64,000 nt of DNA from Gammaproteobacteria bacterium (lineage in GTDB: Bacteria > Pseudomonadota > Gammaproteobacteria > Steroidobacterales > Rariloculaceae): assembly GCA_035548835.1 (NCBI GenBank), contig DASZSB010000110.1, forward strand, positions 3,538 to 67,537. Direction: 5' to 3'. The translations under genes and the position numbers were made by a program. Under the pieces are notes generated by a model. It did not search any database. It saw only the letters and a list, made by a program, of their open reading frames with translations, and was not told where the DNA came from. Positions 21,701-47,297 of this stretch are shown here, piece by piece. Positions within the stretch are counted from its first letter, which is position 1. Each line of letters starts with the position of its first letter.

Positions 21701-23071
21701 ATGGCGCTGGTCCGCTCCCTTCGTGCGCGCGTCGTGCTGTGGGTGTGCGTCGCGCTCGTCGTGTTGTTCGCGGCGACGATCGCCGGTCTCGACATTGCAT
21801 TCCGGAACAGCACGGATGGCGACCGGCGCGAGCTGCTCGAGGCGCAGGTGCTGGGGCTCATCGCGCTCGCGGAGCCGGGGCCCGCCGGAGAGCTCCGCCT
21901 GCCCACCGAGGCGATCGATCCGCGCTTCGAGGTCGCGAACTCCGGTCTGTACGGTGCGCTGTACGACGGCAACGGCCGCGCGCTGTGGCAGTCGCTGTCG
22001 CTGCTCGGGCGCGACTTTCCGACCGACGAGCTCGCGGCGCCCGGCGAACGGAAACATCTGCTGCTCGAAGTGCCGGGTTTTCCGCCGATCGAAGCGCAGC
22101 TCATGGGCATCACGTGGGAGTTCGCGGACGGCCGCACGGCGGCTTACACGTTCGCCATCGGCGTGTCGCTCGAGCCCTACATCGAGCGGCAGGCGACTTT
22201 CCGCAACTACCTGATCGGCTGGTTCCTCGGCGTGACGCTGACGATGCTGCTCGTCGTCAGCGGACTGCTGACGTTCGTCCTGCGGCCCGTGCGCAGGCTC
22301 GAGCGCCAGGTGCGGGAGGTCGAAGCCGGCGAGCGCGTGCAGCTCACGGGCAACTACCCGTCCGAGCTCGTGGGGCTCGCGGACAATCTGAACATGCTGA
22401 TCGATACCGAGCGGCGCCGGCTCGTGCGCTACCGCAACACGCTCGACGATCTCGCGCACAGCCTGAAGACTCCGCTCGCCGCGATGCGGACGCTGCTCGC
22501 CGAGCAACGCTCGCAGCCGGCCGAGGATCGCACGGAGGCGCTGAATCGCGAGCTCGAGCGCATGGATCAGCGCGTGTCGTATCAGCTGCGGCGCGCGCGC
22601 GCCAGCGGTGCCACGGGGCTCGGTACCGAGCCCGTGGCGGTCGCGCCCATCGTCGACGATCTGAAGCTCACGCTCGACAAGGTGTACCGCGACAAGCGCG
22701 TTGCCTGCAGCGTGTCCGTCGCTCCGGGCGCGTCGTTTCGGGGCGATCCGGGCGACCTGACCGAGATCCTCGGCAACCTGATGGACAACGCGTACAAGTA
22801 CTGCCGCGGCCGTGTGCGCGTGGTCGCCGAATCCACGCCGGAGCGGCTCGCGATCACCGTGGCCGATGACGGCAAGGGGATCGGCGAGGAGTTCGCGGCG
22901 CAGCTGTTCGAGCGCGGCAAGCGCGCCGACGAGTCCGTGCCGGGGCAGGGCATCGGGCTCGCCGTCGTGCGCGAAACCGTGCAGCTGTATCGCGGCTCGC
23001 TCGAAGTCGGCCGGTCCGATCTCGGCGGCGCGGAGTTGCGCGTCGAGCTGTCGCGCGCAGGCGTGCTGTGA
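21701..23071 (+). CDS. sensor histidine kinase (PhoQ/QseC-like architecture)
   Basis: Two TM helices flank a ~140-aa periplasmic domain. H-box LAHSLKTPLAAM, N-box GNLMDNAYKY, G1 DDGKGI and G2 GQGIGLAVV are all present. Confidence 0.92.
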   Translation: MALVRSLRARVVLWVCVALVVLFAATIAGLDIAFRNSTDGDRRELLEAQVLGLIALAEPGPAGELRLPTEAIDPRFEVANSGLYGALYDGNGRALWQSLSLLGRDFPTDELAAPGERKHLLLEVPGFPPIEAQLMGITWEFADGRTAAYTFAIGVSLEPYIERQATFRNYLIGWFLGVTLTMLLVVSGLLTFVLRPVRRLERQVREVEAGERVQLTGNYPSELVGLADNLNMLIDTERRRLVRYRNTLDDLAHSLKTPLAAMRTLLAEQRSQPAEDRTEALNRELERMDQRVSYQLRRARASGATGLGTEPVAVAPIVDDLKLTLDKVYRDKRVACSVSVAPGASFRGDPGDLTEILGNLMDNAYKYCRGRVRVVAESTPERLAITVADDGKGIGEEFAAQLFERGKRADESVPGQGIGLAVVRETVQLYRGSLEVGRSDLGGAELRVELSRAGVL

Positions 23072-33114: not shown

Positions 33115-34356
33115 TCAGCGTGGCTCGATGCGCAGGACTGCGCCCTGCGCCTCGTCGGTCAGCACGTACAGCAGTCCGTCCGGACCCTGTTTCACGTCGC
33201 GGATACGCTGGTGCAGGTCGGTCAGCAATTCCTCGCGGCGCAGTTCCTCCATCTTCTCGTTGAAGAGGATGCGGCTGAGGCGGCCCGTGCCCGGGATCTC
33301 GCCGTAGCGCATGCCGCCCACGAACACGTCGCCCTTCCACTTGGCGAGCTTGTCGCCGGTGTAGAAGGTGAAGCCGGAAACCGCGATCGCCGGCGTCCAG
33401 TAGACGACGGGCGGCTCGAAGCCTTCGTGCGTCGGCAGCTTTGCCTGCCACGGCCCGGGATAGGTGCGGCCGTAGCTTACGAGAGGCCAGCCATAGTTCT
33501 TGCCGGCGCGGATGATGTTCAGCTCGTCGCCGCCGTTCGGGCCGTTCTCGCTCTGCCAGATCTCGCCCGTGACCGGATGAACCGCGAGGCCGAGCGAGCT
33601 GCGGTGGCCGAGCGTGTAGATCTCCGGCTTGTACCCGGCCTGACCCACGAACGGGTTGTCGCTCGGGACCGTGCCGTCGTCCTTGATGCGCAGCACCTTG
33701 CCCGAATACGTGTCCTTGGCCTGGGCGTCGCCGCCGCTGGTGGCGATGTAGAGCATGCCGTCCTTGCCGAACACGATCGGCATGGCGCCGGCCGTGGTCT
33801 CGTCGGCCACGAACACGTCCTTGACGTCGGTCACGCCGCTGCTCGTCCACTTCATGCGCGCGACAGCGTCGACGTTACGGTTGTTGCCCATCGGCTTCGT
33901 GTAGCTCAGATAGATGAGCTGGTTCTGCGCGAACTGCGGGTGTAGCACGACGTCCATGTAGCCGTGGACCGCGCCCGGCAGTCCCGATTCGCCGGCGAAG
34001 TACGCCTTGGGAGCGCCGCTGACGGGCTTCGGATCGAGCTTGCCGTTCCTGATCGTGCGCAGCTCGCCGTTGCGCTGCGCGATCAGCATCGTGCCGTCGG
34101 GCAGCCAGGTCAGGCTGAACGGAAACGACAGCGCCTTCGTGACGACGACGACGCGGATGTCCTGACCTTCGCCCGTGGCGTAGTCGAACGGACCGTCACC
34201 GAGCGGCCGGTGGGCGAGGCCCTGCGGCGCGAGCGGGATTCCCATCTGGAACGGCACGGTGCGTTGCGCGAGCGCCGCCGGAGCGGCCAGCGTGGCGGCG
34301 AGAGCGAGCCACGAACCGCGGCTCGTGACGCGTTGCAGGAGACGGACAGTTGGCAT
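33115..34356 (-). CDS. PQQ-dependent soluble sugar (glucose/sorbosone) dehydrogenase, YliI/Asd-like
   Basis: The ATG at 34356 gives a signal peptide (WLALAATLAAPAALAQ). The beta-propeller signature is GHRSSLGLAVHPVTGEIWQSENGPNGGDELNIIRAGKNYGWP. The remainder of the 753-aa ORF is a spurious extension. Confidence 0.88.
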   Translation of the reverse strand: MPTVRLLQRVTSRGSWLALAATLAAPAALAQRTVPFQMGIPLAPQGLAHRPLGDGPFDYATGEGQDIRVVVVTKALSFPFSLTWLPDGTMLIAQRNGELRTIRNGKLDPKPVSGAPKAYFAGESGLPGAVHGYMDVVLHPQFAQNQLIYLSYTKPMGNNRNVDAVARMKWTSSGVTDVKDVFVADETTAGAMPIVFGKDGMLYIATSGGDAQAKDTYSGKVLRIKDDGTVPSDNPFVGQAGYKPEIYTLGHRSSLGLAVHPVTGEIWQSENGPNGGDELNIIRAGKNYGWPLVSYGRTYPGPWQAKLPTHEGFEPPVVYWTPAIAVSGFTFYTGDKLAKWKGDVFVGGMRYGEIPGTGRLSRILFNEKMEELRREELLTDLHQRIRDVKQGPDGLLYVLTDEAQGAVLRIEPR

Positions 34357-34512
34357 TGGTAGGACCCCTCGATTGGAACAGCCAGTATAGGGCGACTCGC
34401 CAACCCGAAGAAGTCGTGCGGACCGTCGGCGCCGATGGCGCTGTGTGAAGGTACCAAGTTCGCTATGATTCCGGCGGGCTCGACCGAAGCACCGCAGGAA
34501 GGGGGGGGAGAC

Positions 34513-35319
34513 ATGCGCTGTGGGGTCATCGTCTGCGCGGCCGCAGTGGCGTTGCTCGCCCTGTCTCCGCTGGTCGCGGGTGCGCAGGGCGCGCCGAAAC
34601 GCATCGGCGGGCACCCGAATCTGAACGGGCTGTGGCAGTCGATGAGCACGGCGTACTGGAATCTCGAAGCCCACGCGGCGTCCCCGCTGAACGACTTCTG
34701 GAGGCTCGGGGCGATCGCTGCCATTCCGGCGGGTCAGAGCGTCGTGAAGGAAGGCAAGATCCCGTACAAGCCCGAGGCACTCGCGAAGCGCGACCAGAAC
34801 CGCGCGGGCTGGCCGAAGACGGATCCCGAAGCGGCCTGTTACCTGCCGGGCATCCCGCGCGCGACGTACCTGCCGTATCCGTTTGAGATCGTGCAGGGTG
34901 ACGGCGACATCCTGTTCGCATACGCATTCGCCGCGGCGAACAGGGCCGTGCATATGAAGGAGCACCGCACGATCGACCAGGTGCCCGTCGACATGTGGAT
35001 GGGCTGGTCGAATGGCCATTGGGAAGGCGACACGCTCGTGGTCGAGGTCATCGCCAACGACGACCGCACGTGGTTCGACCGTGCGGGCAATTACCACAGC
35101 AACGCGCTGAAGGTCACCGAGAGGTACACGCCGCTCGACGCGAACCGCCTGCGCTACGAGGCGACGATCGAGGATCCCGAGACGTTCACGAAGCCGTGGA
35201 CGATCTCGATGCACCTGTACAGGCACACGGAACCGAACGCCGAGCTGCTCGAGTTCAAGTGCGTCGAGTTCTCCGAGCATCTGCTCTACAACGAGTTCCT
35301 GAAACAGCCGTTGCCATAG
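34513..35319 (+). CDS. uncharacterised secreted protein, paralog of 35842-36984
   Basis: The ATG at 34513 follows a G8AG tract. Signal peptide: VALLALSPLVAGAQG. The core W.G.S.GHWEGDTLVVE...D..G..HS..L.VTERYT..D...L.YEATIEDPETFTKPWT...EF.C.E is shared with the downstream minus-strand gene. Confidence 0.8.
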   Translation: MRCGVIVCAAAVALLALSPLVAGAQGAPKRIGGHPNLNGLWQSMSTAYWNLEAHAASPLNDFWRLGAIAAIPAGQSVVKEGKIPYKPEALAKRDQNRAGWPKTDPEAACYLPGIPRATYLPYPFEIVQGDGDILFAYAFAAANRAVHMKEHRTIDQVPVDMWMGWSNGHWEGDTLVVEVIANDDRTWFDRAGNYHSNALKVTERYTPLDANRLRYEATIEDPETFTKPWTISMHLYRHTEPNAELLEFKCVEFSEHLLYNEFLKQPLP

Positions 35320-35362
35320 CACGGCGGCCAAAGCGATCTTGAGGCACGAGGAGGCGAGAACG

Positions 35363-35773
35363 ATGCGAGTCAGCATGTGGTTCGGGGTACTGGGCGGAGC
35401 CGCTCTGATCGCCGTCGCGGCGCCCGTGGTCGCACATCACTCGTTTGCGGCGGAGTTCGACATCAATCGGCCGATCAAGCTCGACGGCGTCGTCACGAAG
35501 ATGGAGTTCAGCAATCCGCATTCGTGGTTGCATATCGAGGTCGTGACCGACACGGGCGAGAAGCAGCAGTGGATGGTCGAGGGCGGCGCGCCGAACGCGC
35601 TGATCCGCAACGGCTGGACCCGCAACTCGGTGCCACCCGGCATCAAGGTGCACGTGGAGGGCTTCCAGGCCAAGGACCGCTCGTTCCGCGCGAGCGGGCG
35701 CGACATCACGCTGCCGGACGGCAAGTCGCTCTTCATGGGCCAGGGCGGCGCTGCAGCGCCGAGCGCCGACTGA
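35363..35773 (+). CDS. DUF6152-like small secreted protein
   Basis: The ATG at 35363 gives a signal peptide ending AAPVVA, then HHSFAAEFDINRPIKLDGVVTKMEFSNPHSWLHIEV. This matches the HHSF...V.L.G.V....W.NPHSW pattern I associate with DUF6152. Confidence 0.75.
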   Translation: MRVSMWFGVLGGAALIAVAAPVVAHHSFAAEFDINRPIKLDGVVTKMEFSNPHSWLHIEVVTDTGEKQQWMVEGGAPNALIRNGWTRNSVPPGIKVHVEGFQAKDRSFRASGRDITLPDGKSLFMGQGGAAAPSAD

Positions 35774-35785
35774 CCAGGCTGATCG

Positions 35786-35828
35786 TTCCGGTCACGTGCG
35801 TGAGGGGCCCTCACGCACGTGACCGGAA
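35786..35828. terminator. 43-nt near-perfect palindrome (20-bp stem) between convergent genes; bidirectional terminator candidate
   Basis: TTCCGGTCACGTGCGTGAGG-GGC-CCTCACGCACGTGACCGGAA. It lies 13 nt after the stop of 35363-35773 and 14 nt after the stop of 35842-36984. Confidence 0.65.
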
Positions 35829-35841
35829 TTCGCGATGCGCG

Positions 35842-36984
35842 TCACTCGCCGGCGTTGATGTCGAAGACCTCGGCGCCCTCGCGCGGCCGGCCGTAGATGC
35901 CGAGCCCTTCGGCCCGTTGCGGCGGCGGCTGGCCCTTGGCGATCGCCTCTGCCACCTGCCGCTCGAAAGCACGCTCGCCCGACAGCGCGTGGCCGACAGC
36001 GCCGTTGCCCTCGTGGCAGGAGTACTCGTACGTCTCGTAGTTCGGCTGCGTCGTGATCATGAGCCGGAACGTGAACGGTGCCGTGTACGTGACGGGGTCG
36101 TTGACGGTCGCCGTGTACTCGATCATGTCCGGATCGACGCGCGTGAAGCGCTCCGTGAGCCGCATGTCGGCGCTGTGGCGCGTGCCGTTGCCGTTCGGAC
36201 CGATGCTGGTCTGGTCCGTGAAGTTCGTCGTCTCGACGACGAGCGTGTTGCCCTCGAAGTGGCCGCGGGAGTTGCCCATGTACTGGCGGATGTCCGGGGC
36301 GAGATGCGCTCGGCCATCGAGCGGAATCACGCGCGTGTCGTGAATCATCTCGTAGCTGATGGCCACCTCCGTGGGTGTCTGCACGATGCGCATGCCGTTG
36401 CCGTAGATGACCGGCAGCGTGGAGCCGAGCACCCCGCGCGTGATGCAGCGATCGTACAGCGTGAAGTCCTCGAAGCCGTTGAACGGTCCCGGGCCGAATG
36501 TGCCGCGATCGCGATTGGCGGCGCGTGCCTTGCCGGCCGCCGTCATCTCCGGGATGCGGCCATTGGCAGGCTCGACGACGAGCGAGGCGTAACCGAACGT
36601 GCGGATGCCCCATTCGTTGCGCAGGAACGTCTCGCGATTCGTTGCGAGGTCCTTGCCGCCTTCGTCACGGCTCGCGCGTTGCCGGAACTCCTCCGGCGTC
36701 AGCGTGGCGCGGGTGCCGAAAGACTCCGGGCGCTGCAGCGGCACGCTGCGCATGTCATCGGTGCTCCAGACGCCGTCGAAGCTCGGGTCGCCCCAGGACG
36801 TGCGTGGCGGTTTCCAGTTGCGATTGGTGATGGCTGCCGCAGTCGTCTCGGCAGGGACGGAACGCACGATGGAGGGTTTCGCCGCGGGTCCGCCCCCCGG
36901 GCCTTGCGCTCCGGCCGGCAGCCCGAGCGTGAGAGCAAGCGTGGTCGCGAGTCCGCTGAGATAGCGATGGTCGATTCGCCGCAT
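35842..36984 (-). CDS. uncharacterised secreted protein, larger paralog of 34513-35319
   Basis: The ATG at 36984 gives MRRIDHRYLSGLATTLALTLGLPAGAQG (380 aa). It shares YMGNSRGHFEGNTLVVETTNF...G.RHS..M.LTERFTRVDPDMIEYTATVNDPVTYTAPFT...YEYSCHE with the plus-strand paralog. Confidence 0.8.
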   Translation of the reverse strand: MRRIDHRYLSGLATTLALTLGLPAGAQGPGGGPAAKPSIVRSVPAETTAAAITNRNWKPPRTSWGDPSFDGVWSTDDMRSVPLQRPESFGTRATLTPEEFRQRASRDEGGKDLATNRETFLRNEWGIRTFGYASLVVEPANGRIPEMTAAGKARAANRDRGTFGPGPFNGFEDFTLYDRCITRGVLGSTLPVIYGNGMRIVQTPTEVAISYEMIHDTRVIPLDGRAHLAPDIRQYMGNSRGHFEGNTLVVETTNFTDQTSIGPNGNGTRHSADMRLTERFTRVDPDMIEYTATVNDPVTYTAPFTFRLMITTQPNYETYEYSCHEGNGAVGHALSGERAFERQVAEAIAKGQPPPQRAEGLGIYGRPREGAEVFDINAGE

Positions 36985-37064
36985 GGCAGATCCCCTTGGC
37001 CAACGTGCGGGCGCGGATCGGCTGAAGAATAGGCCAACGGCGCGGGGTTCTCCATTGGCCCGGG

Positions 37065-38573
37065 TCAGGTCGGGTCCGGAGGCATGTCCCGGGCGGTCCG
37101 GAGGATCTCGCGTACGCGGTCGGCGTAGCCGCGGATCTCGGCGGCGTGCGCGGTCACCAGCGCGCCCGCCATGCGCACCGGGTCGCCGAAGAAGAAGCGT
37201 TCGTACAGCACCTGCCGCCCGGCGAACGCCGACAGCGCCGTGTCCCAGGCGAGCCGAAACAGCGGTATGCGCTCGAGCGCGTCCGCGCGTGCGGCCTGGT
37301 AGTAGCGGCGGATGTCGGCGGCGAGCGGGCCGTCGATGTCGGCGGCCGTCGGCATCGCGACGAGACCGCTGGCGCCGATCTGCTGCAGGATCTCGACGAG
37401 CCGCGGATACAGCCGCGGGAACAGGTTGCGCGCGGCGTCGAGCGGGTTCCACGCGGGGCGCACGACGCCGAACTCGTCCGGCGCGGCGTCCGCTTCCGCT
37501 GCGCGCAGGAACGCGCGCATGGTTTCGAGCGTGACCCAGATCTCCGCGAGCTTCTCCTGCACGTGCTGAAAGCCCTCCACACCGATCGAGTCGACGAGCA
37601 GGTGGGCCAGGCCGAGCACGAACTCGGCCTTCGCGACGTTCTTGACCACGACCTGGTGCGCCATGCCCGCGGCCGCGCCGGTGCGGGCGTACGCGCTGTT
37701 GCAGCGCTCGACGTCGCGATACAGCAGCACGTTCTCCCAGGGCACGTGGACGTCGTCGAACACGACCACGGCGTCCATCTCCTCGAACCGCGAGCCGAGC
37801 GGATGGTCCGGCGGCGGCCGGCCGCAGTCGACGCTCTCGCGGCACAGGAATCTGAGGCCGGGCGCGTCGGTAGGGATGATCACGCCGAAGGCGTAGGGCG
37901 CGTCCTCGGGTGTGTTCTTCAGCAGCGTGGACGGGAACACCATGATCGCGTCGGCCATGGGCAGGGTCGCGAGCATGCGGGCGCCGCGCAGCACGATGCC
38001 GGCGTCGTTCTCGCTCCTCACGCGCGCCGCGAGGAACGGATCGGCCTGTTGCGACGGTCCCACGGCGCGATTGATCTGCGGCGTCAGCAGCGAGTGCGTG
38101 AGGCACAGATCGTGCTCGCGCAGCTCGGCGTGCAGTCGCAGCGCATTCGTGCCGAAGCGCGGCTCCGCGGCGCCGAGAAATGCGGCGCCGGCGGCGAACC
38201 CCGACATGGCGCGGCTCAGATAATCCGGGACGCGGCCCATCATGCCGTGCGTGTGCTGCGCCCAGACGCGCATCGCGGCCGTCACGCCCTCGAGCTCGGC
38301 GCGCGTCCGCGGCAGCAGAAACGCGCGTCCGACCTCGAGCCCGCTCGAGGGGGATTCGAACAGACAGTTCTGGGCTTGCTCCCACTGCAGATCGTAGAGC
38401 TCGGCCAGTGTCGCGACGCCGCCGCGGAACGCCGGATGCGTCGTGACGTTCGCGACGGGCTCACCGGCGTACCACAGGGCCGGCGGCCGCTCCTTGAGGC
38501 GGGCCAGGACGTCGGCGCCGCGGCGGGCGCCGCCGGCGCGGCCAGTCGCGAGCGGCCGGCCGGCGGCGCTCAT
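37065..38573 (-). CDS. 4-hydroxyphenylacetate 3-monooxygenase oxygenase-component (HpaB) family flavin-dependent monooxygenase
   Basis: The ATG at 38573 gives a 502-aa protein. The segments THSLLTPQINR, DAIMVFPS, AFGVIIPTDAPGLRFLCRES and the C-terminal ERFFFGDP are typical HpaB-family blocks. The ATG overlaps the upstream stop (ATGA). Confidence 0.85.
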   Translation of the reverse strand: MSAAGRPLATGRAGGARRGADVLARLKERPPALWYAGEPVANVTTHPAFRGGVATLAELYDLQWEQAQNCLFESPSSGLEVGRAFLLPRTRAELEGVTAAMRVWAQHTHGMMGRVPDYLSRAMSGFAAGAAFLGAAEPRFGTNALRLHAELREHDLCLTHSLLTPQINRAVGPSQQADPFLAARVRSENDAGIVLRGARMLATLPMADAIMVFPSTLLKNTPEDAPYAFGVIIPTDAPGLRFLCRESVDCGRPPPDHPLGSRFEEMDAVVVFDDVHVPWENVLLYRDVERCNSAYARTGAAAGMAHQVVVKNVAKAEFVLGLAHLLVDSIGVEGFQHVQEKLAEIWVTLETMRAFLRAAEADAAPDEFGVVRPAWNPLDAARNLFPRLYPRLVEILQQIGASGLVAMPTAADIDGPLAADIRRYYQAARADALERIPLFRLAWDTALSAFAGRQVLYERFFFGDPVRMAGALVTAHAAEIRGYADRVREILRTARDMPPDPT

Positions 38574-39103
38574 GCGGCCGGCGCCTTCGCGGGCCGTAAT
38601 GCGCGCTCGAGGTTCGCGACATCGGCTTCCGCGAGATCGGGGCTGAAGTGACGGATCCGGTCGAGGATATCCGTCGTCTCGAAGTAGTCCTGCGCGCAGC
38701 CCGCGTGCACGAAGCCGCCGGGCTCGAACCGGTACTCCTCGAAAAACACGAGCGGGATGCGCCATTCGTCCTTGGCGATGGGCTCCTTGCACTGCCGGCA
38801 GCGCGCGCGGGCCGTGGGTGCGCGCTCCCCGCCGTGGACGCGCGGCACCCTGCGGTGCGCGACGCCGAACTGCGCGGCCGCCGTCAACGCGGCCGCGGCC
38901 CCGCCGGCATCCCGGGCCACCTCGAGGAACGGTTCCGGGCGCGCGTATGCGGCGCAGCGCAGGTGGAACCACAGCGTCATCTCGCCCTCGCCGAAGGCGT
39001 TCGGCTGGCGCTCGCCGAAGCGCAGCTCGCCCTTCGCGATGGCTCGGTTGCAGCCGCGGCACTTGGCGCGGCTGCTCGATGCGGGTTCGATCACGTGCGG
39101 CAC
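38570..39103 (-). CDS. tandem PARP-type zinc-finger (zf-PARP-like) protein
   Basis: 177 aa with two copies of the signature. Finger 1: SSRAKCRGCNRAIAKGELRF...LWFHLRC, i.e. C-x2-C-x28-H-x2-C. Finger 2: ARARCRQCKEPIAKDEWRI...GFVHAGC, i.e. C-x2-C-x27-H-x2-C. The spacing of finger 1 is identical to PARP1 finger 1. Confidence 0.75.
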   Translation of the reverse strand: MPHVIEPASSSRAKCRGCNRAIAKGELRFGERQPNAFGEGEMTLWFHLRCAAYARPEPFLEVARDAGGAAAALTAAAQFGVAHRRVPRVHGGERAPTARARCRQCKEPIAKDEWRIPLVFFEEYRFEPGGFVHAGCAQDYFETTDILDRIRHFSPDLAEADVANLERALRPAKAPAA

Positions 39104-39201
39104 CCCGGGATTATAGGCATGCGCGCGGCGGGCGGCCCGAGGCGCGGGTTGCGCGCGTCTGCTACGCTGTGCGCCACCCCAGTACCGTCACGAGCCCCCC
39201 C

Positions 39202-40437
39202 GTGAGCAGCTCGACTACCGCCGCGTCCGGGCAGGCGACCGGAACGGCGTTCGCAATTCTCGCCGCGATCAGCTTCTGTCACCTTCTGAACGACATGATG
39301 CAGTCGCTGCTGCCTGCCATCTACCCCATCCTGAAGGACAGCTACGGCCTCACGTTCGGCCAGATCGGCTTCATCACGTTCACGTTTCAGGTCACGGCTT
39401 CGCTGCTGCAGCCCGCCATCGGCAGCTTCACCGATCGACGGCCGCAGCCATACTCGCTCGCCGTCGGCATGGGCTTCTCGCTGATCGGCCTGCTGCTGCT
39501 GTCGCGGGCCAACACGTTTCCGCTGCTGCTCCTGGCTGCGGGGCTCGTGGGCAGCGGCTCGGCCGTGCTGCACCCGGAGTCGTCACGCGTCGCGCGCATG
39601 GCGGCGGGCCGTCAGCCCGGGCTCGCGCAGTCGCTGTTTCAGATGGGCGGCAACCTGGGGTCGTCGATCGGGCCGCTGTTCGCTGCGGCCGTCGTGCTCC
39701 GTTACGGGCAGGGCAGCGTGGCGTGGTTCGCACTCGCGGCCGTGCTCGGCATCGTGCTGCTCGCGCGCGTGGGCCGCTGGTACGTGCAGCACGGCATGCA
39801 ACGCATGCGGGCGCAGGCGCGTCGGGACGCAGGCGAAGCCCTGCCGCGTGGCCGCGTGGCGTTCGCGCTGGGGGTGCTGGTCACGCTCGTGTTCTCGAAG
39901 TTCGTGTACACGGCCAGCATCACGAGCTACTACACCTTCTATCTGATCGACCGCTTCGGGTTGTCCGTGCGTTCGGCGCAGATCCATCTGTTCGTGTATC
40001 TCGCGTCCGTGGCGCTCGGCACGCTGCTCGGGGGCTCGATCGGCGACCGGTTCGGCCGCAAGTTCGTCATCTGGGTTTCGATTCTCGGCGTGTTGCCGTT
40101 CACGCTCGTGCTGCCGTACGCCAACCTGTTCTGGACGGGCGTGCTGACCGTGCCGATCGGGTTGATCCTGGCCTCCGCGTTTCCCGCGATCGTCGTGTAC
40201 GGGCAGGAGCTCGTGCCGTTCAAGGTCGGCACGGTGGCGGGCCTGTTCTTCGGGCTGGCGTTCGGCCTCGGCGGGATCGGTGCCGCGCTCGTCGGGCAGT
40301 TGGCGGACGTCCACGGCGTGGAGTTCGTGTTCAGGTTGTGCTCGTGGTTGCCGGCGCTCGGTCTGCTGGCCGCGTTCTTGCCGCGCGTTCGGCCGCGTGG
40401 ACACGTGATCCGTCCGCCGATCGTCGAGAAGCGCTGA
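39202..40437 (+). CDS. fsr: MFS transporter, Fsr (fosmidomycin resistance) family
   Basis: The GTG at 39202 gives a 411-aa protein. The segment FAILAAISFCHLLNDMMQSLLPAIYPILKDSYGLTFGQIGFITFTFQVTASLLQP closely parallels the E. coli Fsr N-terminus. Confidence 0.88.
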   Translation: MSSSTTAASGQATGTAFAILAAISFCHLLNDMMQSLLPAIYPILKDSYGLTFGQIGFITFTFQVTASLLQPAIGSFTDRRPQPYSLAVGMGFSLIGLLLLSRANTFPLLLLAAGLVGSGSAVLHPESSRVARMAAGRQPGLAQSLFQMGGNLGSSIGPLFAAAVVLRYGQGSVAWFALAAVLGIVLLARVGRWYVQHGMQRMRAQARRDAGEALPRGRVAFALGVLVTLVFSKFVYTASITSYYTFYLIDRFGLSVRSAQIHLFVYLASVALGTLLGGSIGDRFGRKFVIWVSILGVLPFTLVLPYANLFWTGVLTVPIGLILASAFPAIVVYGQELVPFKVGTVAGLFFGLAFGLGGIGAALVGQLADVHGVEFVFRLCSWLPALGLLAAFLPRVRPRGHVIRPPIVEKR

Positions 40438-41118: not shown

Positions 41119-41916
41119 ATGACGCTTTTCAAAACTAAAGTAGCTGCAGCTACTGGCCAACGGCTGGTCCACCTGCTGGTGGCCATCGTGCCGGCTCTGC
41201 TGGCCGCGCCCGCCGGTGCGCAGCTTCAAGAGGCGCTGACCGCACAAGTTCAGGCAGACAAAGAAGCGGCGCAGACGCAGGACCAGATCAAGACGATCCA
41301 GGAGCGCACGCAGGACGCCGCCGGTCGTTACGCGCAGGCCATGGCCGACGCGGACAGCCTCGAGCGTTACAACAACCAGCTCCAGGAGCAGGTCAAGTCG
41401 CAGCAGACCGAGATCGCGTCGATCGAGCGTCAGCTCACCGACATCGAGACGACCAACCGCGAAGTGCAGCCGCTGATGCAGCAGATGGTCGACACGCTCG
41501 CTCAGTTCGTGTCCCTCGACGTGCCGTTCCTGCTCGATGAGCGCCAGGCACGCGTGCAGGGCCTGAAGGACATGATGGCCCGGGCCGACGTGACGATCTC
41601 CGAGAAGTACCGCCGGATCCTCGAGGCCTACCAGATCGAGCTCGAGTACGGCCGCACGCTCGAAGCCTACCAGGGCCGTCTCGGCACCGGCGCCGATGCG
41701 CGCACGGTCGAGTTCGCACGGCTCGGTCGCGTGTCGCTGATGTATCGCACGATCGACGGCAGCGAGACCGGTTACTGGGACGCGACGAAGAAGTCGTGGG
41801 TCAAGGATGACAGCTACAAGCAGGCCGTGGAGGTTGCGCTGCGCGTCGCCAAGCGCGATGGCGCTGCCGAGTTGCTGACCGTACCTGTTCCGGCGCCGCA
41901 GGAGGTGCGGTCATGA
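41119..41916 (+). CDS. DUF3450 coiled-coil periplasmic protein (TtpB-like), copy 1
   Basis: RBS CAGGAGG; the start is ATG 41119 (or GTG 41116). It has a signal peptide, a long Q/E-rich coiled coil, and EKYRRILEAYQIELEYGRT...GYWD. It lies first in a TonB2-type cluster. Confidence 0.8.
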   Translation: MTLFKTKVAAATGQRLVHLLVAIVPALLAAPAGAQLQEALTAQVQADKEAAQTQDQIKTIQERTQDAAGRYAQAMADADSLERYNNQLQEQVKSQQTEIASIERQLTDIETTNREVQPLMQQMVDTLAQFVSLDVPFLLDERQARVQGLKDMMARADVTISEKYRRILEAYQIELEYGRTLEAYQGRLGTGADARTVEFARLGRVSLMYRTIDGSETGYWDATKKSWVKDDSYKQAVEVALRVAKRDGAAELLTVPVPAPQEVRS

Positions 41917-46616: not shown

Positions 46617-47297
46617 ATGACGCGCATTTGGAAATACCCGCGGGTTGCCGGCGGGCTGTTGGCGGTAGCACTCACTGGCAGCGCACTCGCGCAACAGCAG
46701 CCGACTGGCGGGGATCGCTATGCCCGGACGTTGGCCGAGGCGGAGATCACTGCGCGCTACAACACGCAGATCGAGCAGCAGCTTCGCTCGCAGCAGGGCG
46801 AGATCGCTGCGCTCGAGCAGCAGATCGCGGGCCTCGATGCGACGGCCGAAGCCGTCGAGCCGCTGCTGCAGAAGATGTACACGCAGCTCGACGAGTTCGT
46901 GAAGAACGACGTGCCGTTCTTCCCCGCGGAGCGCGCCCAGCGCATGGAACGCCTCCGCGATCTGATGGCGCGTGTCGACGCGCCTGCGTCCGAACGGTTC
47001 CGTCGCCTGCTGGAGGCCTACCAGATCGAAATGGAGTACGGCCGCACGATGAGCGCGTACAAGGACAAGCTCGCGGACGGCCGCGAGGCGGAGTTCGTGC
47101 GTCTCGGCCGTGTATCGCTGTTCTACAGGACGATGGACGGCGGCGAGACGGGCTATTGGGACAATCAGAAGAAGAGCTGGGTACCGGATCGCGACTCGGC
47201 TCGCGCGATCGAGCAGGCGCTCGCCATCGCGAAGGAGCAGCGCGCACCGGACCTAATCGTGGTCCCGGTGCCGGCAGCGCAAGGAGGTAGATCGTGA
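46617..47297 (+). CDS. DUF3450 coiled-coil periplasmic protein (TtpB-like), copy 2
   Basis: 226 aa and paralogous to copy 1. ERFRRLLEAYQIEMEYGRT aligns with EKYRRILEAYQIELEYGRT, and FVRLGRVSLFYRTMDGGETGYWD aligns with FARLGRVSLMYRTIDGSETGYWD. Confidence 0.8.
   Translation: MTRIWKYPRVAGGLLAVALTGSALAQQQPTGGDRYARTLAEAEITARYNTQIEQQLRSQQGEIAALEQQIAGLDATAEAVEPLLQKMYTQLDEFVKNDVPFFPAERAQRMERLRDLMARVDAPASERFRRLLEAYQIEMEYGRTMSAYKDKLADGREAEFVRLGRVSLFYRTMDGGETGYWDNQKKSWVPDRDSARAIEQALAIAKEQRAPDLIVVPVPAAQGGRS

Follow-up and report, generated by a model that had tools for sequence, protein, structure and literature searches.

A bacterial stand-alone tandem PARP-type zinc-finger protein, likely a DNA-break binder, with hpaB as a lineage-specific neighbour

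Introduction

Why should a small bacterial protein with the zinc fingers of eukaryotic DNA-nick sensors be encoded in overlap with an aromatic hydroxylase? The question is raised by a 64-kb stretch of gammaproteobacterial DNA (the window), in which the stop codon of a 177-aa zinc-finger protein (ZnF) overlaps the start codon of hpaB, an arrangement that a sequence-only reading had taken as the sign of a dedicated, probably stoichiometric partnership. The nick-sensing finger of PARP and Lig3 is usually held to have been invented by eukaryotes, and two proteins are taken to make up bacterial NHEJ. Our literature searches returned no paper on the bacterial zf-PARP (PF00645) family, and the words PARP and zinc were absent from a bacterial NHEJ review and from an NHEJ comparative-genomics paper. 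Here we report the domain identity, predicted fold and residue conservation of ZnF, its overlap with hpaB, the distribution of its neighbours and the pattern of hpaB loss, all of them as established by the tools employed.

Results

Identity and predicted fold of the zinc-finger protein

The features of the locus are collected in Table 1. The 177-aa product matched the Pfam zf-PARP profile PF00645 in two stretches (E = 1.3e-20; 74.3 bits, with the gathering threshold at 39.3), as the sequence-only reading had expected of a tandem PARP-type zinc finger. Both of the CCHC spacings it had pointed out were found, namely C15-x2-C18-x28-H47-x2-C50 in finger 1 and C102-x2-C105-x27-H133-x2-C136 in finger 2, and the eight zinc ligands were invariant in an alignment of 48 sequences. 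The W(F/Y)H context it had also noted was present in finger 1 (LWFH) but not in finger 2 (GFVH), where the His is not preceded by Trp.

The AlphaFold2 model of ZnF (pLDDT 92.8, pTM 0.86) was compared with the PDB by means of Foldseek. The best matches were the N-terminal domains of PARP1 on nicked DNA (9mi8, 1.6e-9), followed by PARP1 F1F2 on a DNA lesion (2n8a, 2.8e-9), and further top matches corresponded to Zn1/Zn2-DNA complexes and to the Lig3 finger 1uw0. The first 28 PDB matches were all PARP1 or Lig3 fingers, with unrelated structures appearing only after them, and the Foldseek probability was 1.00 for 9mi8, 2n8a, 3oda, 3odc and 1uw0. The fold predicted for ZnF, in a model and not in a solved structure, is that of the PARP1/Lig3 finger, and the F1F2 tandem of PARP1 is among the structures matched.

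Table 1. Features of the ZnF locus in the window.
Feature	Coordinates	Strand	Remarks
Conserved downstream block	33115..35773	mixed	Far side of the variable slot; profile searches and synteny
GSDH-type dehydrogenase	33115-34389	minus	Downstream block
Secreted 294-aa protein	34435-35319	plus	Downstream block
DUF6152	35339-35773	plus	Downstream block
Sec380, 380-aa secreted protein of unknown family	35842..36984	minus	80 nt 3' of hpaB
hpaB, 4-hydroxyphenylacetate 3-monooxygenase oxygenase component (HpaB-1 type), 502 aa	37065..38573	minus	Reductase gene not adjacent
ZnF gene, 177-aa stand-alone tandem PARP-type zinc-finger protein	38570..39103	minus	GTG start; ORF list and PF00645
ATGA, ZnF stop/hpaB start overlap, 4 nt	38570..38573	minus	Same overlap type in relatives
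ZnF finger 2, residues 96-140, ligands C102/C105/H133/C136	38684..38818	minus	Second Pfam stretch; divergent, acidic
ZnF finger 1, residues 5-52, ligands C15/C18/H47/C50	38948..39091	minus	Basic; phmmer alignments to 2n8a, 4av1 and 1uw0
TATAAT, -10-like hexamer	39110..39115	minus	6 nt 5' of the ZnF GTG; without Shine-Dalgarno
MFS transporter gene	39202..40437	plus	MFS_1 at 1.8e-35; divergent from ZnF

Finger 1 (pI 9.1) resembled PARP1 Zn1/Zn2 and the Lig3 finger more than finger 2 did, and its loop 'PNAFGEGEM' was closely like the Lig3 loop 'PNPFSESGGDM'. Besides the ligands, R12, R28, F37 and W45 were invariant in finger 1, and R103, W114, R115 and R125 in finger 2 (pI 5.2), which departs from the PARP1 and Lig3 fingers in being acidic and in lacking Trp before its His. 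R12, invariant and aligned to PARP1 R18/R122, and R99, nearly invariant, occupy the positions of these two arginines, which form the phosphate backbone grip of PARP1 (PMC8150716). As regards base stacking, the position of PARP1 F44 is taken by Gly38 in ZnF, next to the invariant F37, and the loop of finger 2 to be compared with the stacking residues L161/I164 is shorter and acidic.

ZnF thus shares the CCHC ligands, their spacing and the predicted fold with PARP1 and Lig3, and the tandem two-finger layout with the former, but stands alone in 177 aa without any catalytic, BRCT, WGR or ligase domain. A helical linker with the invariant motif HRRVPR joins its fingers, and the model presents a fixed inter-finger geometry instead of beads on a string; this geometry is unlike that of DNA-bound PARP1 F1F2 (TM 0.41-0.43, rmsd 8 Å). 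By analogy with the fingers of PARP1 and DNA ligase III, we infer that ZnF most likely binds strand discontinuities, whether nicks, gaps or ends, whatever their sequence, and the basic finger 1 would hold the phosphate backbone through its arginine grip.

Size and spread of the family

Homologues of ZnF amounted to 1693 matches in 90%-identity clusters, under the NCBI name 'PARP-type zinc finger-containing protein', and an exhaustive phmmer search yielded 604 clusters when these were drawn at 50% identity, with lengths of 170-240 aa in almost every case. Sequences 50-80% identical to ZnF occurred across Gamma- and Betaproteobacteria, Acidobacteriota, Eisenbacteria, Gemmatimonadota and Planctomycetota. 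ZnF is best explained as one member of a bacterial family, conserved and encoded on the chromosome, whose proteins consist of two PARP-type fingers and stand alone. When 10 long proteins from the 150 best representatives were scanned with Pfam, the only partners were 5-FTHF cyclo-ligase, HEAT or multi-finger arrays, and no fusion with HpaB, a ligase or a nuclease was found. A mobile-element origin was also considered and rejected, tblastn against plasmid and phage collections giving no match.

The oxygenase gene and its junction with ZnF

The gene that follows ZnF encodes, as had been proposed, an HpaB-family oxygenase of 502 aa, which scored 599.9 bits against TIGR02309 (HpaB-1; cutoff 480.2) and contained the HpaB_N and HpaB domains (PF11794 at 1.4e-79 and PF03241 at 1.2e-65). 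In phmmer it aligned along its entire length with HpaB of Thermus thermophilus (2yyg; E = 2.3e-143), and the substrate-site motifs GRvPDY, ltH and FPST were identical between both proteins in this alignment; the substrate-site residues of the Thermus enzyme are R100, Y104, H142, S197 and T198. No Flavin_Reduct (PF01613) gene adjoined hpaB or appeared among the 26 window ORFs scanned, in agreement with the claimed absence of an HpaC-type reductase nearby; a reductase gene may still lie in another ORF or beyond the window. The classical hpaB-hpaC pair was present in the sister-branch orthologues P0205, P0227 and P0188 (74-75% identical), where a Flavin_Reduct gene lies immediately 3' and there is no finger gene, whereas hpaB in the window has the zinc-finger gene upstream instead. 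In a neighbour-joining tree, ZnF-linked HpaBs were separate from HpaC-linked ones.

The ATGA at 38570-38573 is a true overlap: the TIGR02309 alignment begins at residue 16, and from the ATG at 38573 up to that residue hpaB has no other start codon in frame. The same ATGA was found in three related loci (L002, L003 and L004) and GTGA in L015, while in L012 the two genes overlap further, by about 20-26 nt, the overlap being therefore retained in at least five clade members beyond the window. From contigs of matching length, ZnF and HpaB were judged to lie together in at least eight further metagenomic relatives, and adjacency and overlap outlasted divergence of ZnF to about 64% and of HpaB to about 74% identity.

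This persistence speaks for a genuine functional and possibly stoichiometric pair, in which the finger would tether or chaperone an oxygenase deprived of its dedicated reductase, or give it a module for interactions, and so do the separate branch of the ZnF-linked HpaBs, none of those examined having an adjacent reductase, and the acidic character of finger 2, which could therefore offer a protein-binding surface. We nevertheless consider such a pair very improbable. The gene hpaB lay 3' of ZnF at only 6 of 80 species-level loci, all within the window's own gammaproteobacterial clade, so that more than 90% of ZnF loci lack it. Syntenic sister genomes lacked hpaB and retained ZnF, and since these loci are scattered through the clade tree, hpaB must have been lost independently at least four times while ZnF was kept at the same locus. 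One relative (L081) showed a 16-nt gap instead of an overlap, no ZnF-HpaB fusion was seen among the 10 long proteins mentioned above, and the window HpaB has kept all canonical 4-HPA-site motifs and a full-length match to the Thermus enzyme, which needs only a flavin reductase. Bacterial genes in the same direction, besides, overlap by four bases more often than in any other way, and the window has three further overlaps of this size. The adjacency is not unique to this genome and recurs in related ones, but it is confined to one clade. A dedicated partnership was not borne out, the three sister-branch HpaB loci being all devoid of ZnF, and ZnF, judged by coupling in the same way, is coupled to LigD in about 12 other species. 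It is possible that co-expression of ZnF and hpaB brings some selective benefit.

Genes around ZnF and hpaB

Around the loci compared, the ZnF ORF was fixed first and neighbour calls are approximate; for this reason the LigD, Ku and HpaB counts were cross-checked by tblastn and Pfam. The secreted paralog gene noticed 80 nt downstream of hpaB on the same strand was confirmed as Sec380 (start at 36984), which shared about 40% identity over about 100 aa with the secreted 294-aa protein of the downstream block and gave no Pfam or NCBIfam match. Sec380 is the second optional occupant of a variable slot 3' of ZnF; its presence was independent of hpaB in sister loci, and all four presence-absence combinations of both genes were found.

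On the other side, the MFS gene was a conserved 5' neighbour of ZnF in the window's clade only (syntenic in L001-L003, L009, L012, L015, L016, L026, L042 and L072), across a 98-bp intergenic region. The small size of ZnF, this clade-wide divergent arrangement and the basic nature of finger 1 and the linker would suit a sequence-specific transcription factor acting on its neighbours, either hpaB and Sec380 or the MFS gene. A local regulator is, however, expected to keep its neighbours, and those of ZnF were almost wholly unconserved (the 117 immediate neighbours held 133 Pfam families) whereas ZnF itself is conserved; no conserved operator was recognized upstream of ZnF by visual inspection, and the zf-PARP fold recognises DNA structure and not sequence (PMC8150716). 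We therefore give this regulatory role little credence.

The TATAAT hexamer upstream of ZnF was first spotted by eye in the window, and its statistical support comes from the comparison of 81 loci, where a TANNNT hexamer was located 5-9 nt 5' of the ZnF start in 29, with a sharp peak at 6-7 nt; an SD-like tetramer occurred in none of these 29. A promoter/terminator consensus scan of 35700-39400 gave no match, and there was no -35/-10 pair at ZnF. From the hexamer and its position we infer leaderless expression, the transcript of ZnF, and hpaB along with it, being predicted to be leaderless. A CTG-N10-CAG-like string (CTGGGGTGGCGCACAG) 5' of ZnF was examined as a candidate SOS/LexA box and rejected; it is present in the window and was not kept in syntenic loci.

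Linkage to LigD and Ku

Bacterial NHEJ as known from Mycobacterium, Pseudomonas and Bacillus relies on Ku and LigD, and descriptions of it name two components. In 17 of 80 loci LigD was located at no more than 6 kb from ZnF, in some cases together with Ku, ZnF lying in or beside the cluster. LigD domains were the sole recurrent ones among the 117 immediate neighbours, and no other repair family recurred next to ZnF. The linkage appeared in four gene orders and in three phyla or classes. In the commonest one (Woeseiaceae-type), Ku and LigD are divergent, and ZnF starts, behind a GGAGG motif, right at the LigD stop or in overlap with it; betaproteobacterial loci have Ku-LigD divergent from DUF72-ZnF; LigD is convergent with ZnF in L043; and in a Solibacteraceae locus (L045) separate genes for the ligase and Prim-Pol domains lie 5' of ZnF. 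A single arrangement, found in related lineages, accounts for 13 of the 17 LigD-linked loci, so that only about four independent linkage events are left. Moreover, tblastn detected neither Ku nor LigD in the 64-kb window, and the NHEJ link is a minority association because 63 of the 80 loci have neither of these genes, nor another repair gene, nearby.

These 63 loci, together with a window that lacks NHEJ genes and has UvrC 8 kb from ZnF, are compatible with binding of DNA or RNA structures outside NHEJ, for example in the repair of bases or single-strand breaks by excision or otherwise, in the restart of replication or in the organisation of the nucleoid, the adjacency to LigD being then one lineage's use of a generic nick-binding module. 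In eukaryotes, the main task of the zf-PARP proteins PARP1 and Lig3 is the repair of single-strand breaks, which also counts for this possibility. Against it stand the recurrence of LigD as the only repair family beside ZnF and the spread of the link over several gene orders and lineages, and we deem it unlikely. In those lineages in which ZnF lies inside the Ku-LigD locus, it would probably act as an accessory break sensor or recruiter for end joining.

Discussion

Taken as a whole, the explanation that we favour, with moderate confidence, is that ZnF is a stand-alone DNA-break binder and hpaB a lineage-specific passenger in its transcription unit. In the gammaproteobacterial clade of the window, an ordinary hpaB would have parted from its hpaC reductase gene and inserted once into the variable slot just 3' of ZnF; it would now be co-transcribed and translationally coupled from the probably leaderless promoter of ZnF, and it would have been repeatedly lost since then. 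With one landing, a shared promoter and repeated loss, the overlap would therefore reflect shared expression in a compact genome and not a stoichiometric complex of finger and oxygenase.

The commonest arrangement of the LigD-linked loci, where translation of ZnF is coupled to that of the ligD 3' end, recalls Lig3 of eukaryotes, in which a zf-PARP finger and a DNA ligase are fused. In Arabidopsis, the 3'-phosphoesterase ZDP combines an enzyme that processes DNA ends with three zf-PARP fingers in one polypeptide, and LigD too has a 3'-phosphoesterase domain. The fingers of ZDP target end healing or sealing to breaks; in bacteria, finger and enzyme are separate adjacent genes. We propose tentatively, and as somewhat less than an even chance, that stand-alone tandem zf-PARP proteins may be an undescribed third component of bacterial NHEJ or strand-break repair, passing sensed nicks or ends to LigD/Ku, that they may be the counterpart and possibly the source of the PARP1/Lig3 fingers, and that they may be expressed from leaderless mRNA in many lineages.

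The pairing of a finger with an aromatic hydroxylase appears to be mostly an accident of gene order and of little importance. The family to which ZnF belongs is, in turn, conserved, uncharacterised and repeatedly linked to LigD/Ku, and it opens two testable questions: whether bacteria sense breaks with a protein of the PARP kind, and from where eukaryotes obtained the module. With only 177 aa and a confident model, ZnF is a tractable target for biochemistry and genetics.

A stand-alone bacterial family of tandem PARP-type fingers

Profile comparison bore out the sequence-only reading of ZnF, the 177-aa product, as a tandem PARP-type zinc-finger protein. The Pfam zf-PARP model (PF00645) matched it in two stretches (E = 1.3e-20, 74.3 bits; gathering score 39.3), and both CCHC spacings were as that reading had described them (C15-x2-C18-x28-H47-x2-C50 in finger 1 and C102-x2-C105-x27-H133-x2-C136 in finger 2). 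Its other observed details also stood; only the W[FY]H context had to be given up for finger 2, where FVH replaces it without a Trp and the Cys-to-His loop is one residue shorter than in finger 1. Finger 2 is acidic, whereas finger 1 (pI 9.1) and the linker (pI 11.4) are both basic, and the roles of the two may differ.

The confident AlphaFold2 model of ZnF (pLDDT 92.8, pTM 0.86) had PARP1 and Lig3 fingers exclusively as PDB neighbours, namely the N-terminal domains of PARP1 bound to nicked DNA (9mi8, E = 1.6e-9), PARP1 F1F2 with a DNA lesion (2n8a), crystal structures of Zn1 and of Zn2 with DNA, and the finger of DNA ligase III (1uw0). In phmmer alignments R12 was the counterpart of PARP1 R18/R122, the "phosphate backbone grip" residue (PMC8150716), and R99 occupied the grip-arginine position of finger 2. 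PARP1 F44, which stacks on bases, aligned to Gly38 of ZnF, the neighbour of invariant F37. ZnF is predicted to have a tandem zf-PARP fold with zinc ligands and grip arginines conserved.

A search across 5.8 billion proteins returned 1693 matches, the best 120 of which measured 170-235 aa, carried PF00645 alone and were 66-99% identical to the query; some homologues bear the NCBI name "PARP-type zinc finger-containing protein". HMMER, run exhaustively against 1.84 billion 50%-identity representatives, detected 604 clusters, nearly all stand-alone and of about 180 aa, and the plasmid and phage collections held no homologues. All eight zinc ligands were invariant in a 48-sequence alignment, as were R12, K14, R16, R28, R32, F37, W45, R103, W114, R115, R125 and the HRRVPR motif of the linker. 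ZnF belongs to a large, conserved bacterial family of chromosomal, stand-alone proteins. Longer architectures were rare among representatives from outside the window: P0258 and P0262 have a 5-formyltetrahydrofolate cyclo-ligase domain N-terminal to the tandem finger and may be gene-calling read-throughs, and P0280 has five zf-PARP stretches in 694 aa. Neither the zf-PARP domain nor the HpaB enzyme is new, nor are 4-nt overlaps, and both Pfam and NCBI carry annotation for the bacterial family.

In 26 loci the ZnF start is preceded, at a distance of 6-7 nt, by a -10-like hexamer (TATAAT, TATCCT or, in general form, TANNNT); allowing 5-9 nt raises the count to 29 of 81, from several phyla (hexamer loci include L001-L004, L009, L012, L036, L039-L043, L046, L050, L056, L058, L060, L061, L066, L068, L070, L078 and L080); any other single offset gave at most four matches. 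A Shine-Dalgarno-like tetramer was found in none of the hexamer loci and in 21 others. This pattern suggests that the family is commonly expressed from leaderless mRNA across several phyla. Leaderless expression is unusual in Proteobacteria.

Features of the window and of fetched loci
Feature	Locus	Position	Strand	Description
TATAAT hexamer	window	39110-39115	minus	within 39104-39120, upstream of ZnF start
ZnF gene	window	39103-38570	minus	GTG-initiated ORF, 177 aa
ZnF finger 2	window	38684-38818	minus	pI 5.2
hpaB	window	38573-37065	minus	502-aa ORF, HpaB_N and HpaB_C domains
ZnF-to-DUF6152 segment	window	35842-38573		
Sec380	window	35842-36984	minus	begins 80 nt downstream of hpaB; 380 aa, signal-peptide-like N-terminus
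Sec294	window	34435-35319	plus	secreted, 294 aa
Secreted-protein modules	window	33115-36984		
Secreted-protein and DUF6152 modules	L009	2565-11791		several copies
Other 4-nt overlaps	window	23068-23071; 41913-41916; 47294-47297		co-directional pairs
NHEJ island	L013	394-5166		
NHEJ island	L047	760-6555		
NHEJ island	L054	758-6549		

The ZnF-hpaB junction

HpaB scored 599.9 bits against the NCBIfam equivalog TIGR02309 "HpaB-1" (cutoff 480.2 bits), in agreement with the family first assigned to it. The model alignment starts at residue 16, no alternative in-frame ATG, GTG or TTG is present between the hpaB ATG and that residue, and the N-terminus (ATGR..GARRGADVLARL) is kept in relatives; the start codon is sound, and therefore so is the proposed overlap, in which the tetranucleotide ATGA (38573-38570) is common to the ZnF stop and the hpaB start. 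Three other co-directional pairs in the window, from rough GC3-based gene calls, also overlap by 4 nt, so the ATGA is unexceptional for this genome.

HpaB aligned end to end with that of Thermus thermophilus (2yyg, E = 2.3e-143) and retains the same substrate-site motifs (GR-PDY, TH and FPST). As in the sequence-only reading, no reductase gene was found nearby, the Flavin_Reduct domain being absent from the 26 window ORFs scanned. HpaB orthologues P0205, P0227 and P0188 (74-75% identity, on long contigs) have a Flavin_Reduct (PF01613) gene directly 3' and no finger gene, which matches the classical hpaBC arrangement, unlike the window hpaB. The window HpaB has the appearance of a normal phenolic-acid hydroxylase that became separated from its reductase gene.

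The secreted paralog noticed downstream of hpaB proved to be Sec380, which matches Sec294 at about 40% identity over about 100 aa; the stretch they have in common spans some 100-130 aa at about 35-45% identity. The secreted-protein modules of the window are repeated, have no Pfam family and are accompanied by DUF6152 and by GSDH, a PQQ-type glucose/sorbosone dehydrogenase.

hpaB as a passenger beside ZnF

Neighbours were compared in 80 species-representative loci with ZnF at 50-80% identity (Gamma- and Betaproteobacteria, Acidobacteriota, Eisenbacteria, Gemmatimonadota, Planctomycetota, Rhodothermales and other groups). In tblastn with the window proteins, hpaB was directly downstream of ZnF in six (L002, L003, L004, L012, L015 and L016), all within the window's own clade, whose common block is MFS / ZnF ... 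DUF6152 - Sec294 - GSDH. The ZnF-to-DUF6152 segment is a gain/loss hot spot among close relatives. Across the loci compared (L001-L004, L009, L012, L015, L016, L026, L042, L072, L081, L085 and L087), it held hpaB and Sec380 in the window, L002, L012 and L016, hpaB without Sec380 in L003, L004 and L015, Sec380 without hpaB in L001, L009 and L042, and neither in L026 and L072. Apparent frameshifts split the MFS, HpaB, ZnF or Sec380 genes in the MAG contigs L016, L042, L072 and L085; these are probably assembly indel errors and not pseudogenes, and absence calls in such assemblies need caution.

When ZnF, Sec294 and DUF6152 sequences were concatenated for a neighbour-joining tree, hpaB-less loci were scattered among hpaB-bearing ones, L001 for instance nesting within the L002/L003/L004 group. 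In a separate comparison of HpaB sequences, the ZnF-linked ones clustered together, apart from other HpaBs. Most simply, hpaB would have inserted behind ZnF once and then been lost independently at least four times, with ZnF always kept. hpaB is a clade-restricted, repeatedly lost passenger, and the finger-oxygenase partnership first proposed gave way on this comparison: ZnF and HpaB very probably do not form an obligate pair. A true ZnF-HpaB complex, which would fit the acidic finger 2 and an overlap that persists in the clade (ATGA or GTGA in the window, L002, L003, L004 and L015; longer in L012, replaced by a 16-nt gap in clade member L081), is favoured by these two points alone and is improbable. 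Equally improbable is a local transcription factor; the divergent MFS gene is compatible with one, yet ZnF is conserved across phyla and its neighbours are not.

Ku and LigD next to ZnF in other genomes

The window is an ordinary chromosomal region (UvrC, PgsA, DAHP synthase, ExbB/ExbD/TonB) with no Ku or LigD genes. When ORFs within 3.5 kb of ZnF were clustered across loci, the sole recurrent neighbour cluster outside the clade was a protein of ~835-863 aa whose end meets the ZnF start, with a Ku-like protein further upstream; Pfam confirmed Ku and full-length LigD (3'-phosphoesterase, ligase and Prim-Pol domains). By tblastn, LigD was within 6 kb of ZnF in 17 of 80 loci, ten of these also having Ku. 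LigD domains were the sole families with more than four matches among the 133 found by Pfam in 117 immediate neighbours from non-clade loci. We put chance co-location, by reasoning and not computation, at well under one per 80 loci, a 12.5-kb window being ~0.3% of a genome. The Ku/LigD neighbourhood of ZnF is recurrent.

Four arrangements were seen. In 13 loci from Woeseiaceae, Arenicellales and similar lineages, a MerR-TPR gene and Ku lie on one strand and LigD then ZnF on the other; in most, the LigD stop is 3 nt before the ZnF start or overlaps it by 1-13 nt, with a GGAGG motif ahead. Three of the loci (L024, L027 and L028) have genes inserted between LigD and ZnF, including one for a PLP-dependent enzyme. 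In the Betaproteobacteria L047 and L054, MerR-TPR, Ku and LigD are transcribed divergently from DUF72 plus ZnF; LigD and ZnF are convergent in L043; and the Solibacteraceae genome L045 has ligase and Prim-Pol as separate upstream genes. By the translational-coupling criterion that the sequence-only reading applied, LigD is the partner of ZnF in about a dozen species. The MerR-TPR gene stands beside Ku in gammaproteobacterial and betaproteobacterial arrangements alike, and a conserved "NHEJ island" can be described, made up of a protein with MerR-HTH and TPR parts, Ku, LigD, optional DUF72 (PF01904) and the zf-PARP protein. Our literature search found no paper linking zf-PARP to bacterial Ku/LigD, nor any on the bacterial ZnF family; one bacterial NHEJ review and one comparative-genomics paper were silent on zf-PARP.

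Proposed role

ZnF would bind DNA discontinuities by structure, independently of sequence, by means of finger 1 and the linker, both of which are basic. The acidic, divergent finger 2 may either contact DNA as well or offer a surface for protein interaction. Where linked to LigD/Ku, ZnF would aid the detection or presentation of breaks for end joining, by analogy with eukaryotic DNA ligase III, in which a zf-PARP finger is fused to the ligase. In the window lineage, hpaB would ride on the ZnF transcription unit. We somewhat favour this overall picture; its specific NHEJ component is tentative, with a little under an even chance. That ZnF is a generic nick-binding protein with a role unrelated to NHEJ would suit the 63 loci without repair neighbours, and is unlikely. 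The link to LigD at the level of the family is the part deserving follow-up.
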